Part shown: piece after piece, positions 2,117 through 19,611 of the stretch | Layout of the letters: every line of letters starts with the position of its first letter | Numbering within the stretch: the stretch's first letter is position 1 | Notes under the pieces: model-generated | Databases searched by the model: none | The model's input: the letters and a program-made list of their open reading frames with translations, nothing else | What the model was told of the DNA's origin: nothing | Source of the DNA: Bacteroidota bacterium | Lineage (GTDB): Bacteria; Bacteroidota; Bacteroidia; Chitinophagales; Chitinophagaceae | Direction of reading: 5' to 3' | DNA length: 64,000 bases | Assembly: GCA_018267585.1 (NCBI GenBank) | Contig: JAFDYE010000482.1 | Span: forward strand, 14,380 to 78,379 | Program-made: the position numbers and the translations under genes

Positions 2117-3892
2117 ATGGAAAATGAATCCTTTCTTACAAAATACGTCTTCAGCACCGATCACAAGATAATAGCCAAACAGTTCCTCATCACCGGCATA
2201 TTGTGGGCGCTGGTCGGGGGCTTTTTTTCAGTCCTTATGCGTCTGCAGCTCGGCTTCCCCAACACGTCTCATACCTTTCTGCAGCGACTGGCCGGCCATC
2301 TGTTCGTTAGCGGCAAGCTCCAGCCCGAGACCTACTATCAACTGATGACGATGCACGGTACGATCATGATCTTCTTCGTTCTCACGGCAGGGCTCAGCGG
2401 AACATTTGCCAATTTCCTTATTCCACTGCAGATAGGAGCAAGGGACATGGCGTCCCCCTTTGTGAACATGCTGTCTTACTGGGCCTTCTTCGTGGCGAGC
2501 GTCATCATGATCGCCTCCTTCTTTGTACAGGGCGGCCCCTCGGGAGTGGGATGGACTGCCTACGCACCACTTAGCGCACTAAAGGATGCGGACTCTGGCT
2601 CCGGCACAGGACTCGACCTCTGGATCACAAGCCTGGCCTTCTTTATCGTCTCGACGCTGATGGGCGGCATTAATTACATATCCACGATTCTCAATATGCG
2701 CACAAAAGGAATGAGCATGACGCGGCTTCCCCTCAGCACCTGGGGTCTGCTGTTCACCGCCATCATGGGCCTCCTTTCCTTCCCGGTGCTGCTGGCAGCA
2801 TTCGTGCTCCTCCTGTTCGACCGCAACGCAGGGACCAGCTTTTTCCTCTCGGACATCTTCATGACCTCGACCGCACGCGCAATGCCCTATGAAGGCGGGA
2901 GCGCTATCCTCTATCAGCACCTCTTCTGGTTCCTTGGTCACCCTGAAGTCTATATCGTCATATTCCCCGCCTTCGGGATCGTCTCCGAAGTAATGAGCGT
3001 CAATTGCCGAAAACCGATCTTCGGCTATACGGCCATGGTGTATTCGATGTTCGCTATTCTTTCCCTCTCCTTCATGGTCTGGGCCCACCATATGTTCGTA
3101 ACGGGAATGAACCCCTTTCTCGGCTCGCTGTTCGTGCTGTTCACACTGCTGATCGCCATTCCGTCAGCCGTCAAGGTCTTTAACTGGCTGGCAACGCTCT
3201 GGCGGGGCAACATCCATTTCACCCCCGCAATGCTGTTCGCCATCGGATTCGTCAGCACCTTCATCTCGGGCGGGCTGACCGGCATCTTCCTTGGCAATTC
3301 CACCATCGATATCCAACTGCATGACACCTATTTTGTGGTAGCGCATTTCCACCTGGTCATGGGCGTATCCGCCGTTTTTGGTATGTTCGCGGGCATTTAT
3401 CACTGGTTCCCAAAAATGTTCGGCCGGTTCATGGACCCGGTGCTCGGCTATATCCACTTCTGGATAACCCTCGTATCCGTCTACTTCATCTTCTGGCCGA
3501 TGTATTACGAAGGGCTGGCGGGTATGCCGCGCCGGTATTTCGATTTCTCGGGCTGGATATCTTTTAACCAGTTCGAAAAACTCAACATCGTCATTTCCTC
3601 CTTTGCTTTTTTGGCATTCTTCGTACAGCTGATATTTGTCGTTAATTTCTTCCGCTCCATCTTCAAAGGAGAAAGGCTGAAAGAGAAAAATCCCTGGAAG
3701 TCCAATACCCTCGAATGGACGACACCAATAAAACCCGGTCACGGCAACTGGCCGGGAGAGATACCCGAGGTCTTCAGAGGCCCCTACGAATATTCAAAAG
3801 ACGGAAGAGAGTTCATTCCGCAGGACGAACAGCCGGGATCCGTCAATAGTGACATTTCTGACATTCCGTCCCGCCAATATTCTCAACGGTGA
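2117..3892 (+). CDS. ctaD: Cytochrome c oxidase subunit I (heme-copper oxidase, A1 type), stand-alone copy
   Basis: Motifs MHGTIM, GARDMAS..N (D-channel D and N), WFLGHPEVY, WAHHMF, IAIPSAVK (K-channel K), HDTYFVVAHFH and GMPRRY. ATG 2117 preferred over the track's GTG 2015. Confidence 0.95.
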   Translation: MENESFLTKYVFSTDHKIIAKQFLITGILWALVGGFFSVLMRLQLGFPNTSHTFLQRLAGHLFVSGKLQPETYYQLMTMHGTIMIFFVLTAGLSGTFANFLIPLQIGARDMASPFVNMLSYWAFFVASVIMIASFFVQGGPSGVGWTAYAPLSALKDADSGSGTGLDLWITSLAFFIVSTLMGGINYISTILNMRTKGMSMTRLPLSTWGLLFTAIMGLLSFPVLLAAFVLLLFDRNAGTSFFLSDIFMTSTARAMPYEGGSAILYQHLFWFLGHPEVYIVIFPAFGIVSEVMSVNCRKPIFGYTAMVYSMFAILSLSFMVWAHHMFVTGMNPFLGSLFVLFTLLIAIPSAVKVFNWLATLWRGNIHFTPAMLFAIGFVSTFISGGLTGIFLGNSTIDIQLHDTYFVVAHFHLVMGVSAVFGMFAGIYHWFPKMFGRFMDPVLGYIHFWITLVSVYFIFWPMYYEGLAGMPRRYFDFSGWISFNQFEKLNIVISSFAFLAFFVQLIFVVNFFRSIFKGERLKEKNPWKSNTLEWTTPIKPGHGNWPGEIPEVFRGPYEYSKDGREFIPQDEQPGSVNSDISDIPSRQYSQR

Positions 3893-5063
3893 TGGAGTCC
3901 TTCGCGCCCGTGGCCAGCTCACGGGCAAATCTGCTGTAGATGCTATAGAACCTGTTGCCCTTATTGGTGCCATCGGGAAAATCGACCTTGGTGGTCCGGT
4001 GACAGTTGATACACCAGCCCATGCTCAAAGGAGCGAACTGCCGCACCTCATCCATCTCCTGCACCGGCCCGTGACAGGTCTGACATTGTATCTTGCCGGC
4101 TTTTGTGTGCTGGGCGTGGCTGAAGAAAACGTGATCGGGAAGACTATGGATCCTGACCCATTCGATCGGATGTCCGGCCTTCGTGTATTTCCTCTGATCC
4201 GGATCATAGCCGGTATAGCCGTATAGCTTTCTGATCTCGTCATTGGGGTTGACCCTGCTACCGTCCTCCCGCTGCAGCCGCTCACCACGGTAGTCATTGA
4301 TGGCCAGGTGACAGTTCATACAAATATTGGGAGAGGGGACAGTAGCATGTTTACTTTCAAGGGCATTGGTATGACAATACAGACAGCTTATCTGATTGAG
4401 GCCTGCGTGTATCCTGTGTGAAAAATAGATCGGCTGCTTCGGCTGATAGCCCTGTGACCGCCCCAGTCCTATCCCAAGCTGTGTCATCCAATAGCCAACC
4501 ACGCCGAACAGCAAAATGCTGGCCACAGTTATATATATCTTGTTCCGGTAGACCGGGACAGGCGGGGGCGCAACCAGCCCCTGTTTTTCTTCGGCCAGTT
4601 TCTTAAGATTGAGATTGTGCAGATAGAGCCCAATTACAAAAAGGCCGAGAATGCAGCTGACGATACCGTAAAGCAGACTGTGATCCTCCTCAGGAGGGTT
4701 AGGGAGGGTCGAAGTATTGGTCTTCGCAAGCGGCTCTGCATAACTATTGACATAACTGAGAATGGCGTCTATTTCGGCGTCGGAGAGTCCCGGGAAGGTA
4801 TTCATCGGCGCACGACCGTACTGGTTATAGAGATTTGTGAAATAAGTGTTCCCGGAAGCCAGTACCTTGGTGTTGTTGTGGATCCAGTCGTGAAGCAGCT
4901 TGCGGTCGGTGACCCGGTCTGTGACGCCCTTTAACGCCGGACCGGTGATGACCCTCACCGGATTGTGACACTGGGCGCAGTTGGTCTGGAACAAAGCCTT
5001 ACCATCCTGGGCATAAGCCCGGAAAGAAAGAAATAAAAGGACAAAGAAAAAAAGCCGCGCCAT
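3843..5063 (-). CDS. Hexaheme c-type cytochrome, ActA-like (signal peptide, monoheme domain, 2 TM helices, pentaheme c3-type domain)
   Basis: Six CxxCH motifs: CAQCH, CLYCH, CMNCH, CQTCH, CINCH, CQKCH. QPIYFSHRIHAG, WVRIHSLPDHVFFSHAQH and SMGWCINCHR match alternative complex III ActA. Start set at MARLFFFVLL (5063). Confidence 0.85.
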   Translation of the reverse strand: MARLFFFVLLFLSFRAYAQDGKALFQTNCAQCHNPVRVITGPALKGVTDRVTDRKLLHDWIHNNTKVLASGNTYFTNLYNQYGRAPMNTFPGLSDAEIDAILSYVNSYAEPLAKTNTSTLPNPPEEDHSLLYGIVSCILGLFVIGLYLHNLNLKKLAEEKQGLVAPPPVPVYRNKIYITVASILLFGVVGYWMTQLGIGLGRSQGYQPKQPIYFSHRIHAGLNQISCLYCHTNALESKHATVPSPNICMNCHLAINDYRGERLQREDGSRVNPNDEIRKLYGYTGYDPDQRKYTKAGHPIEWVRIHSLPDHVFFSHAQHTKAGKIQCQTCHGPVQEMDEVRQFAPLSMGWCINCHRTTKVDFPDGTNKGNRFYSIYSRFARELATGAKDSITVENIGGTECQKCHY

Positions 5064-5099
5064 GTCGTGGCTTTTTCCAAAAAAAATCATGCCAGCCAC

Positions 5100-5404: not shown

Positions 5405-5475
5405 CAAAGTTGTCCCTTATATCCTTCAACAATGATAGAGGTTCTCCCTATTTAAGGCGGGCGGATTCCCTATTT
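5405..5475 (-). promoter_or_regulatory. TAGGG direct-repeat operator plus -7-like element for the DUF4242-cytochrome unit
   Basis: Minus strand AAAATAGGGA...AAATAGGGA with TAGGG starting at 5472 and 5450 (22 bp apart), then CAACTTTG ending at 5405, 45 nt from the proximal TAGGG. Confidence 0.65.
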
Positions 5476-8067
5476 TAGGATCCCCAGCCTGAGCGCCTCC
5501 TGTACCGCCTTGGTCCGCGAGTTGACATCCAATTTAAAAAGGACCGAAGAGATATGATGGTCGACGGTCTTGGCGGAAATAAAGAGCCTGGCCCCTATTT
5601 CCTTGTTCTGCAACCCCTCCTTCAATAATTCGAGAACACCCAGCTCCCGGTCGGTAAGAAGGGCCGGATTGGCAAGGGTCGTTTTCCTGAGACCCCGGGG
5701 AATGCTTTTGATGCCGGAAATCCTCATTTCCAGCTTCATCTTCTCATAGACCGCCCCGGCACCCAGCTGATTGACGATCGTCAACGCCTTTTTCTTGTCC
5801 TCCCCGCCGCCCTCGAACAGGGCCAGCGCCTGCTCATAAGGACAACCCAGCCGTTCCCATAAAGCCGCGGCCCGGACAGCCCCAACCGACGTACCCAGTC
5901 GATAACCCTCGTAGGTTTCCCGGAGGGGAACCTCCAGTTTTCGGCTCCTCAACAGCCAGAAATCGAATTCGCTATTCTCATAAAGGCTGGCCGTCTGCCC
6001 GATCAGCCCGATCGCGCACTCGATGGCCTCCTTTTCGAGCAGCAGGCTTCCGGTAAGCCATTCATACTCCAGCAGGGCTACCAGGGCAGGAAGTATCCGC
6101 TGCAGCTCCATCGCCTCAAAAGCCATCGCCTTCGCCTGCAGCAGAAGAGGAAGAGCATCCCCTTCCCCCTTCCTCATCTTTATCGTCCCGATCACCACCA
6201 GCGCACCCATCCTGACGATCGGCGCCTGGTCCTCATTCTTCAGGAGCTCCTCCGAAAGGCTGCAGGCCTCTTTCCAACGTCCCGTATCCAGCATCAGCCT
6301 GGCCTTTCCAGACAACATATAGGTCCTCCAGGAACCCAGCTCCCTCTCCTCACAATATTGAATGCCCTGCGCAAGTACCCCGGCGGCAAATGCATAGTCC
6401 TTTATTTTTATACCGCCATTGCTGAGGCTCGTATAGGCCTGGGCCGCCAGTTCATGATAACCATGTTTCAGCGCCAGCTCAAGGCTTCGCTGCAGCAGCT
6501 GAACCCCTCTTTGCCGGTACGCCGGTATCCGCATCTGAACAGCCCCGACATTGTTGAGAGCATGGGAAAGGATCTCGTCATCCCCCAGCTCGTTCGCGAT
6601 GACGATCGCGTTCTCACCCCAATGGATGCATTCCACGATTTGATCGGAAAGCATCTTCAACTGCGACATATTGCTGTATGCCATGGCCTTGGCCCGCGAA
6701 GAAGGCTGGGCTGCGAGGACCTCGATGGCCTGCTGCCCGTAGCTTTCGGCCTGCTTGCGATTGCCGTCGAACCACCAGAGACGCGACAGGAACCACATCG
6801 AATCCCCTATTCTCCCCGTCTCCTCCTTCTCCTTCCAGATGGCAAGCGCCTTTCCCTGGTAAATAATGGCCTCCTTGATCCGGTTGGTCAGATAGCATTC
6901 ATAGGCATAGGACGCATAGAGCCTCACCAACAGGTCCTTGTCCTTCCCCTGGTAGTATTCGATGGCCGTATAGTACAGTTTGGAAGCCTCGACGTGCGCT
7001 CCGACCTCCGCAGCCGCAGCAGCAGCAAGAGGAGCATAGCGAACGACCAGCTCATATTCATTGGCATTTTTCGCATGATGGACGATCCGTTCTATCTCGC
7101 GGTGCTCCTCAAAGCTCCCCCTGAACAGCTCCAGGATCTTCTTGTTCAGCGCGATCCGCACAAAAGGCGACAGCGAGGTCTCGATCGTCCTCCGGTATAG
7201 CTCGTGCTTAAAGAAAATAAGCCCCTCCCGGACGAACAGGATCTTCGCCTCGAGGCATTTCGCCAGCGCCGACGCATACATTGGCTCGACCGTTTCCAGG
7301 TATTTTACCTCAAAGCCCGTCGGCAGTACGGACAGCAGGTCCCATACCTGCTTGGTCTTTTCGTCCAGCCGGTGATACACAGAGAGGACGGCGTCTTTAA
7401 TATTGTCGGGGACCCCCGGACTGTAACTCGCCAGGATCTCGTTCACATAAAATGGATTTCCACCGGAAATGCTATAGACGTCCTCCCCGTTATAGCCCTT
7501 CTCCTTCGCCAGCTTCTCAACCGCAGGTCGCGACAACGGCGTCAGGTGCAACCGGGTGAAAGAGTCGGGAGGCAGCTGTCCCAGGACATTTCGCAATGGA
7601 TGTAAAGAATGGATCTCGTCGTCCCGGTACGTGAGAACAAAAAGACAGCGTAGCCGGGCAATGCGCCTGGCCAGGAACTTTATAAAATCCAGTGTGGCCT
7701 CGTCGGCCCAGTGGATATCCTCAAAGATGATAACGGACGGCGACGACCGGCTGGCGATCTCATGGATGAACCGGTTGAAAAGTGCGGCCCTGTCCTCCTT
7801 CCCGCCGGTATTCTCCCAGCCATCGCCGTGTATCTGCCAGATAATGTCATACAGCGGAGCCAGTGGACGCGGCGTGAACAGCGCGTCGCAGCTGCCCTGG
7901 TAAAAGCTGGCGACCTCTCCCTTTTCTCTGCAAAAAGCCCTTATCAGCGAGGTCTTTCCGATACCCGACTCTCCGCTTATAAGAATACAATGTCCCTCCC
8001 CATCTGCAATATCTCTTAGCCTTGATTGCAGAGTCGATAAAAAACCGGCTCTTTCGATCAACTCCAT
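5470..8067 (-). CDS. LAL/MalT-like regulator: N-terminal AAA (STAND-type) ATPase, helical/TPR-like middle, C-terminal LuxR HTH
   Basis: Walker A GESGIGKT; Walker B IIFEDIHWAD; GGNPFYV; C-terminal LTDRELGVLELLKEGLQNKEIGARLFISAKTVDHHISSVLFKL. Confidence 0.92.
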   Translation of the reverse strand: MELIERAGFLSTLQSRLRDIADGEGHCILISGESGIGKTSLIRAFCREKGEVASFYQGSCDALFTPRPLAPLYDIIWQIHGDGWENTGGKEDRAALFNRFIHEIASRSSPSVIIFEDIHWADEATLDFIKFLARRIARLRCLFVLTYRDDEIHSLHPLRNVLGQLPPDSFTRLHLTPLSRPAVEKLAKEKGYNGEDVYSISGGNPFYVNEILASYSPGVPDNIKDAVLSVYHRLDEKTKQVWDLLSVLPTGFEVKYLETVEPMYASALAKCLEAKILFVREGLIFFKHELYRRTIETSLSPFVRIALNKKILELFRGSFEEHREIERIVHHAKNANEYELVVRYAPLAAAAAAEVGAHVEASKLYYTAIEYYQGKDKDLLVRLYASYAYECYLTNRIKEAIIYQGKALAIWKEKEETGRIGDSMWFLSRLWWFDGNRKQAESYGQQAIEVLAAQPSSRAKAMAYSNMSQLKMLSDQIVECIHWGENAIVIANELGDDEILSHALNNVGAVQMRIPAYRQRGVQLLQRSLELALKHGYHELAAQAYTSLSNGGIKIKDYAFAAGVLAQGIQYCEERELGSWRTYMLSGKARLMLDTGRWKEACSLSEELLKNEDQAPIVRMGALVVIGTIKMRKGEGDALPLLLQAKAMAFEAMELQRILPALVALLEYEWLTGSLLLEKEAIECAIGLIGQTASLYENSEFDFWLLRSRKLEVPLRETYEGYRLGTSVGAVRAAALWERLGCPYEQALALFEGGGEDKKKALTIVNQLGAGAVYEKMKLEMRISGIKSIPRGLRKTTLANPALLTDRELGVLELLKEGLQNKEIGARLFISAKTVDHHISSVLFKLDVNSRTKAVQEALRLGILK

Positions 8068-8122
8068 AGTGGTTGTTTATAAGCAGACCTCCGGTCCGCT
8101 GCCCGAAGGCTTAAATTCTCAT

Positions 8123-8194
8123 AAATTAGGGGGACAGTGCTGGTAAAATAGGGAAAAATCCTTACATCCTATAGCCGAATCGAAGGTTCCTTTG
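8123..8194 (+). promoter_or_regulatory. TAGGG direct-repeat operator plus -7-like element for the tandem DUF4242 gene
   Basis: TAGGG at 8127 and 8149 (22 bp apart), then TTCCTTTG ending at 8194, 45 nt from the proximal TAGGG. Same geometry as 5405..5475. Confidence 0.65.
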
Positions 8195-8876: not shown

Positions 8877-9356
8877 TTATCCTGTTTTTTTATGCGAACG
8901 CGCCCTCTCAAAAAAACTTCTCTCCCTCAACCGCGCCTCCACCTCAATAATGGCCTTCATAAGATTGTTGCGCGTGTTGGTAATCTCCTCAATGGCCTCG
9001 GTCATGATCTTCCATACGGGCTCCATCTCCTGAACCAGCTGCTTACCCTTGTCCGAGAGCCGCAAGATCCGTTTGCGCTCATCCTGCCTGTCCTTCCTGC
9101 TAAGGATCAGCCTTTCCTTCTCCAGCTCTTTCAACAGACTGATCGTAGAAGGATGAGCATAGCCGATCTCCGCCGCCAGCTCGACAACACCAAGCCCCGG
9201 TTTACGATAAAGAGTGTAAATGACAGGAAACCACTTGGGCTCAAAATCGATGCCGCAGTCCTTGTAGATCAGGACGCCATCCTTACGGAGCTGCTCGCTC
9301 AGGCGCTGAAGACGCGTGGAGATGGCCAGGATTCCCAATTCGTCGATGACATTCAT
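8877..9356 (-). CDS. MarR-family transcriptional regulator
   Basis: FEPKWFPVIY...LGVVELAAEIGYAHPSTISLLKELEKERLI...QDERKRILRLSDKG winged helix. Confidence 0.88.
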   Translation of the reverse strand: MNVIDELGILAISTRLQRLSEQLRKDGVLIYKDCGIDFEPKWFPVIYTLYRKPGLGVVELAAEIGYAHPSTISLLKELEKERLILSRKDRQDERKRILRLSDKGKQLVQEMEPVWKIMTEAIEEITNTRNNLMKAIIEVEARLRERSFFERARSHKKTG

Positions 9357-19499: not shown

Positions 19500-19611
19500 C
19501 AAGCATGGCCCGGCGGTTGCTCCCGCCGGAAGGCAACAGTGACTGACCGAAGGGAAATTAGGGGTTTATACTGTTGGTGCAACCACCGAAGAACGCTACC
19601 TTAGGCTTGCT

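Follow-up and report, generated by a model that had tools for sequence, protein, structure and literature searches.

Paired TAGGG sites upstream of two DUF4242 genes, a probable operator of the adjacent LAL/STAND-type regulator

The stretch of DNA analysed here (hereafter the window: 64,000 nt of contig JAFDYE010000482.1, from a Chitinophagaceae bacterium) carries a gene for a LAL/STAND-type regulator flanked by two genes of the DUF4242 (SCO4226-like) family. The gene d1 is directly downstream of the regulator gene and encodes a cytoplasmic protein, while d2 is divergent from it and encodes an exported one (Table 1). In the 7-Mb genome, only three PF14026 domains were found, one in d1 and two in d2. 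Both genes are preceded by two copies of TAGGG. On the minus strand these copies start at 5472 and 5450, upstream of CAACTTTG ending at 5405, and on the plus strand at 8127 and 8149, upstream of TTCCTTTG ending at 8194. In the two promoters, the copies follow each other with a period of 22 bp (TAGGG-N17-TAGGG) and the T of the proximal copy is 45 nt from the G of TTTG. The first-pass annotation of this region had described these features as operators of identical geometry, bound by the LuxR-type helix-turn-helix (HTH) domain of the regulator. All the coordinates it gave for the two promoters were recomputed and are correct. The 22-bp period, the 45-nt offset and the A-rich 5' flanks of the four copies (AAAATAGGG, AAATAGGG, AAATTAGGG and AAAATAGGG) were also read again in the sequence, and the distal copy on the minus strand does hold the TAG that ends the open reading frame (ORF) of the regulator. 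The -7 elements, which it described as degenerate, have TTTG and lack TA in both promoters.

The regulator begins with an AAA_16 domain (1.5e-20, residues 3-143), in which the Walker A motif GESGIGKTS is readable; a match to nSTAND1 (5.7e-4) is under the Pfam cut-off. The central region contains TPR_12 (1.4e-8, residues 349-413) and the C-terminus a LuxR/GerE HTH (PF00196, 2.2e-17, residues 803-857). The protein is thus larger than 800 aa, with a helical-repeat sensor between the ATPase and the HTH. The PDB sequences matching residues 800-864 include VraR and DevR, with GerE (1fse) and ComA (3ulq) among the best matches. No NCBIfam equivalog matched the regulator above its cut-off. Orthology with MalT (NF003420) was rejected, as the match reaches 44.5 bits for a cut-off of 537 and concerns the HTH only (residues 803-861). 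The regulator is not a PAS-LuxR protein of the PimM type either, since no PAS match was found in Pfam.

Table 1. Genes, sites and promoter elements of the regulator locus (positions in the window; promoter positions are predictions)
Feature	Position	Strand	Remarks
LAL/STAND-type regulator, 865 aa	5470..8067	-	ORF; Pfam AAA_16, TPR_12, GerE
d1, single-domain DUF4242 / SCO4226-like, 92 aa	5100..5378	-	PF14026 2.4e-21; directly downstream of the regulator
d2, signal peptide and tandem DUF4242, 208 aa	8240..8866	+	PF14026 4.2e-41 in two stretches; divergent from the regulator
d1 promoter, distal site AAAATAGGGAA	5466..5476	-	Predicted about -72 to -67; TAG 5472-5470 is the regulator stop codon
d1 promoter, proximal site AAATAGGGAGAACCTCTAT, 16-bp core TAGGGA-GAAC-CTCTAT	5435..5453	-	Predicted -50 to -35
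d1 -7-like box CAACTTTG	5405..5412	-	G at 5405, 45 nt from the proximal T; predicted transcription start about 5400
d2 promoter, distal site AAATTAGGGGG	8123..8133	+	Predicted about -72
d2 promoter, proximal site AAAATAGGGAAAAATCCTTA, imperfect palindrome TAGGGA-AAAA-TCCTTA (16 bp)	8145..8164	+	
d2 -7-like box TTCCTTTG	8187..8194	+	G at 8194, 45 nt from the proximal T; predicted transcription start about 8199
42-nt insertion (GCAGACC...CTCATAA)	8083..8124		Separates the distal d2 site from the regulator start codon; specific to this genome, not seen in its closest relatives (L009, L013 and L020)

The pattern TAGGG-N17-TAGGG is found twice in the window, for 0.07 occurrences expected, and none of 100 shuffles reached two. 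Five matches exist in the whole genome, and only the window pair has the AAAT flank. To score such sites, we used a position weight matrix (PWM) trained solely on orthologous promoters of other genomes and scanned it over both strands of the whole genome. The two window sites obtained 59.3 and 59.1 bits, and the next best site in the genome 19.8. The other three TAGGG-N17-TAGGG matches (C144, C623 and C666) were discarded: they have no A-rich flanks and score below 12 bits. A candidate third member of the regulon at 19555-19604 (AAATTAGGGG, then TACCTTAG at +45) was also rejected, having no TTTG, no distal copy and less than 12 bits (vs. 59). A scan of the region for sigma-70 promoters and terminators gave nothing above shuffles, as expected for the Bacteroidota promoter type.

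We collected orthologous loci by a protein search with the regulator (16 loci) and by an alignment search (about 25 more). The genomes belong to Puia, other Chitinophagaceae, Mucilaginibacter, Spirosoma and Dyadobacter (42-84% identity), and most loci have the arrangement of the window, d2 being divergent and d1 downstream. Cultured relatives that possess the module include Puia sp. P3, Spirosoma arboris HMF4905, Dyadobacter jiangsuensis DSM 29057 and Danxiaibacter flavus. From these genomes, 56 distinct Bacteroidota promoter instances were anchored on the proximal T. Their consensus is TAAAATnGGGAA-N11-TnAAATAGGGAAnAnCnCTnAnA, then nnnnTTTG ending at +45. The distal TAAAATnGGGAA is located at exactly -22 from the proximal T, and the period is 22 in almost all pairs (single cases of 21 and 23) with an offset of 45. 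The conservation of motif and spacing in orthologues, which had been set beforehand as a check, is therefore observed. An A is present at -25, -3 and -2 in 56/56 promoters. Of the positions that played no part in the selection, some are invariant or nearly so, namely A at -25 (56/56), G at -19 (51/56) and C at +12 (50/56). TAGGGAA, the A at +8 and the C at +12 are conserved through the 56 promoters, likewise the distal T/GGG and the proximal GGGAA, and the spacers between the conserved blocks have diverged. Moreover, TAAAATAGGGAAAA is found again, with few changes, in the d2-type promoters of orthologues. Perfect inverted-repeat arms (TAGGGA-N4-TCCCTA) exist in three loci (L009, L013 and L018). 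In four others (L011, L012, L020 and L022), the regulator stop codon is displaced 10-60 nt upstream and the full two-site promoter is then in non-coding DNA. The loci without d1 (L009, L015, L019 and L023) have no motif at the regulator stop, the motif thus going along with its target gene.

The strict pair AAATAGGGA-N13-AAATRGGGA was searched in 401 sampled Chitinophagaceae genomes, using the reversed pattern as a control. It was detected in 11 of the 401 genomes, once in each, and the reversed control was detected in 0. A regulator orthologue adjoins the pair in 10 out of 11 cases, the eleventh genome carrying the regulator on another contig, and the pair is directly upstream of a DUF4242 gene in 9 out of 11. 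The only neighbour conserved with the motif is the LAL regulator. Besides the window, the multihaem cytochrome c gene downstream of d1 (3843-5099) and the MarR gene downstream of d2 (8877-9356, minus strand) are kept beside the module only in three close Puia relatives, and these two genes are probably not part of it. The MarR protein was considered as an alternative regulator and rejected, given these three relatives vs. more than 35 loci with the operator. As the MarR and cytochrome genes are common to three Puia relatives only, no conserved candidate for the binding protein is left other than the LAL regulator. Sequence, geometry, conservation, exclusivity in the genome and linkage to the regulator are thus directly observed properties of these sites.

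In some relatives, full two-site promoters beside the regulator were also observed before genes that do not encode DUF4242 proteins, namely a TonB-dependent-receptor-like gene (L023:7130-7260), genes for small secreted proteins or lipoproteins (L033:1490-1640 and L035) and a gene encoding an unassigned cytoplasmic protein (L028). The regulon thus reaches beyond DUF4242.

The same association extends beyond Bacteroidota. Full-length homologues of the regulator with 33-42% identity were found in Acidobacteriota, Actinomycetota, Chloroflexota, Pseudomonadota and Ignavibacteria, and many of them are followed by a gene starting with MPRY(L/M/V)V(E/Q)RTF, a DUF4242-type start. The composite motif T[AG]GGG[AG]-N5-9-C[CT]GA[TA] was found 19 times in 56 kb of regulator flanks vs. 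3 occurrences over 285 kb of coding sequence of the regulators; in the flanks, it is always directed away from the regulator, and the DUF4242 gene is usually downstream of it. Outside Bacteroidota, the 16-bp site is clearly palindromic, TRGGGA-N4-TCCCGA (e.g. TAGGGAACGTTCCCGA in L094). Of 22 such sites, 12 have a second T[AG]GG[GT][AG] at exactly -22; the only other copies between -50 and -8 are single ones at -24, -23 and -21. Fifteen of the 22 sites are followed by a TAnnnT hexamer beginning at +38 or +39, the only other one between +25 and +55 being at +40. In Bacteroidota, the -7-like box starts at +38, i.e. at the same position as the -10 hexamer of the other phyla. The layout recurs beside the regulator in dozens of genomes from several phyla. 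In addition, the recognition helix hardly varies over the regulator family (KTVDHH(I/V)S), which fits the conservation of the DNA word. The overlap with the regulator stop codon occurs in different registers: the proximal site supplies the TAG stop in four loci (L078, L087, L094 and L103), where the distal site lies in coding sequence, while the distal site (TAGGTAG) carries the stop in three others (L074, L079 and L114).

The sigmaA box of Flavobacterium, TAnnTTTG, extends from -12 to -5 (PMC9723704). If the G of TTTG is placed at -5 in the window promoters, the proximal TAGGGA is computed at -50 to -45 and the distal one at -72 to -67. The 16-bp proximal site would then extend from -50 to -35, with a centre at about -42.5, for a class II reference centre of -41.5; the same centre is obtained if the -10 hexamer starts at +38/+39. 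TTTG is found at +42 to +45 in all orthologous promoters and TA is absent, the box being nAAyTTTG or TTsCTTTG in relatives. We also looked for a -33 element (TTG/TTTG), expected about 19 nt before the -7 box, and found no TTG at +15 to +20 in the consensus of the 56 promoters. A missing -33 TTG together with a TA-less -7 reads as a signature of activator-dependent promoters, and the predicted layout would be class II-like, the activator site being backed by a helper site further upstream.

Several known systems share part of these features. In Escherichia coli, the MalT box is GGGGA(T/G)GAGG. MalT has the same domain order as the regulator (AAA/NOD ATPase, helical-repeat sensor, C-terminal LuxR HTH), and several short G-rich boxes are likewise located upstream of a promoter without a good -35. 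However, the box is here AAAATRGGGAA, the proximal site is palindromic, the 22-bp period is rigid and the targets are DUF4242 genes. Driven by ATP and its inducer, MalT multimerises, binds MalT boxes cooperatively and recruits RNA polymerase (PMC4381067). The operator bound by PAS-LuxR regulators, CTVGGGAWWTCCCBAG, lies at the -35 region (PMC9774167). The PimM-type operator resembles ours by its 16-bp palindrome with GGGA/TCCC arms, by its position at the -35 region (predicted here) and by the HTH class of its regulator. It differs by an arm spacer of 2 nt instead of 4, and the PimM-type systems have neither the extra copy at -22 nor the STAND ATPase, whereas our regulator has no PAS domain. 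The regulator HTH also belongs to the same tetrahelical superfamily as those of ComA, GerE and NarL, but these are small response regulators or stand-alone HTH proteins and not STAND ATPases, with other sites, spacing and regulons. The GerE consensus RWWTRGGY resembles AAATAGGG. As for ComA of Bacillus subtilis, it uses direct as well as inverted repeats (PMC4797271). In our searches of the literature, no paper was found that connects DUF4242/SCO4226 with a regulator of the LuxR type.

Taken together, these data indicate that the repeats are very probably docking sites of the adjacent LAL regulator. The proposal of the first-pass annotation that they are sites of the LuxR-type HTH is thus supported by conservation, uniqueness and linkage, with the correction that the proximal site is a 16-bp imperfect palindrome (TAGGGA-N4-TCCyTA) instead of a bare pentamer and that the two sites are not equivalent, the distal one being auxiliary and often degenerate. 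We further consider it likely that they form the operator of this regulator, acting as a MalT-like STAND activator that fills both sites cooperatively. In the proposed mechanism, the proximal site would be a 16-bp imperfect palindrome, T(A/G)GGGA-N4-(T/C)C(C/T)(C/T)nA, abutting the -33/-35 position in both promoters, and the AAAAT(A/G)GGGAA half-site located 22 bp upstream, about two helical turns away and nearly on the same face, would be auxiliary. On the model of MalT, the regulator would oligomerise once bound to ATP and its inducer, and occupy both sites cooperatively; the rigid 22-bp spacing of the two sites is our basis for proposing cooperative multimerisation. The regulator would then recruit RNA polymerase to these weak core promoters (TA-less -7, no -33 TTG), and this recruitment would switch on the cytoplasmic d1 protein and the exported tandem-DUF4242 protein d2. 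The regulator would probably also affect its own expression, because the d2 operator is near its start codon (within about 60-100 nt in the window and 20-60 nt in relatives) and the d1 operator is over its stop. Binding, activation rather than repression, oligomerisation, transcription start sites (TSSs) and autoregulation are all predicted here from the DNA and protein sequences.

Several observations weigh against this interpretation or limit it. In Bacteroidota, the right arm of the palindrome is weak: within the window, it matches in register at only 1 of 6 positions in the d1 proximal site, for 5 of 6 in the d2 one. Since the right arm is poor in the d1 site and imperfect in the d2 site, the conserved part in Bacteroidota is mostly the left half-site, and the description as direct repeats is fair. 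Moreover, most relatives have a degenerate distal d2 site (ATAAAAT[G/A][G/A]G[G/A]), with TGGGG, TGAGG or TGAGA in place of TAGGG. The identical geometry announced for the two promoters therefore holds in the window, but the exact distal TAGGG of d2 is specific to this genome, so that the identity is partly peculiar to it. The recognition helix, being nearly invariant, leaves no power for a test of protein-DNA covariation. A search of RNA runs for the TSSs of the window found no run with more than 6% of the window words. For L020, the closest complete genome, it yielded only small pieces of metatranscriptome contigs from relatives, in which neither starts nor ends of transcripts were seen. Finally, the sequence may also be compatible with repression, and at least one LAL-type protein, SCO6993, is reported as a negative regulator.

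Indeed, the regulator could be a repressor or a dual regulator whose occupancy of the sites blocks the upstream element or the divergent regulator promoter until an inducer releases it. Negative autoregulation is plausible in view of the d2 sites, which lie between the divergent start codons and, in relatives, close to the regulator ATG. We nevertheless consider this unlikely, as the sites are predicted to end upstream of the core promoter, at about -35, the unconserved -33 TTG and the TA-less -7 boxes point to activator dependence, and the characterised relatives cited above (MalT and PimM) are activators that bind at or beside -35. It is still less probable that the motif belongs to another factor, i.e. 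an unlinked transcription factor or a sigma factor of the ECF (extracytoplasmic function) type with a GGGAAC-like promoter, and was carried along with the DUF4242 genes. GGGAAC/GGGAAT is superficially similar to ECF -35 elements, and in most loci the motif tracks the DUF4242 genes as closely as the regulator. However, a separate sigmaA-like -7 box, or a TAnnnT -10 hexamer in other phyla, is present at a fixed +38, and the 22-bp duplication and the palindrome found in other phyla do not correspond to the architecture of a sigma factor site. The motif also precedes non-DUF4242 genes beside the regulator (L023, L028 and L033), and no gene for a sigma factor or another regulator is conserved in the loci.

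The promoters could also resemble each other as a by-product of chance, of a coding constraint (I-[IL]-K-stop, encoded by ATHAAATAG) or of a recent promoter duplication. The distal d1 site does overlap the last codons and the stop of the regulator gene. Nevertheless, the motif is kept where this stop is displaced (L011, L012, L020 and L022) as well as in the non-coding d2 region, and it is therefore not a mere by-product of the regulator C-terminal codons. The expectation obtained from shuffles (0.07) excludes chance, and the entirely different sequences between the conserved blocks argue against a recent duplication. The motif is moreover conserved across phyla, and on these results and the PWM scores we regard this explanation as already refuted and give it almost no weight.

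An activation by the adjacent LAL regulator would be, in kind, an ordinary local activator-operator pair, in a module that is widespread. It nevertheless defines, purely from sequence, a candidate operator and a complete two-promoter regulon for an uncharacterised LAL subfamily, whose genes accompany those for DUF4242 (SCO4226-like) proteins in soil bacteria from several phyla. With two sites, one regulator and two promoters, it also offers an experimental handle on the function of DUF4242 and on the signal of the STAND protein. In addition, the equal spacing from the operator to the -10 in other phyla and to the -7 in Bacteroidota constitutes a small and clean natural alignment of the two promoter types. 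Because this spacing is equal in both, it suggests that the contact between activator and polymerase is conserved. A broader and rather doubtful idea is that the regulator, the operator word, the 22-bp layout and the +38 distance form one ancient cassette, which would have remained intact over at least five phyla and over the change from -35/-10 to -33/-7, with the cytoplasmic and the exported DUF4242 protein being more than outputs and taking part in the sensing loop (e.g. delivering a metal or a small ligand to the STAND sensor).

Some minor observations concern the region between the regulator and d2. In locus L020 (2440-2533), two RNA contigs from rhizosphere/root samples, belonging to relatives with less than 90% similarity, extend 59-60 nt upstream of the regulator ATG and cover the distal site in reverse complement (…CCCCCTCATTTTA…). 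They are a weak hint that the regulator mRNA in this locus starts upstream of the distal site, a carry-over of DNA being possible. In the window, the 42-nt insertion was considered as a mobile element and rejected as such, having no second copy in the genome; it increases the distance between the operator and the regulator ATG from about 20 to about 60 nt. Lastly, two tandem paralogous regulators, with 62% and 60% identity to that of the window, are arranged head to tail in L015 / L040 (DASUMO010000468.1), with no d1 between them. There, the proximal site is kept only in the upstream divergent promoter.

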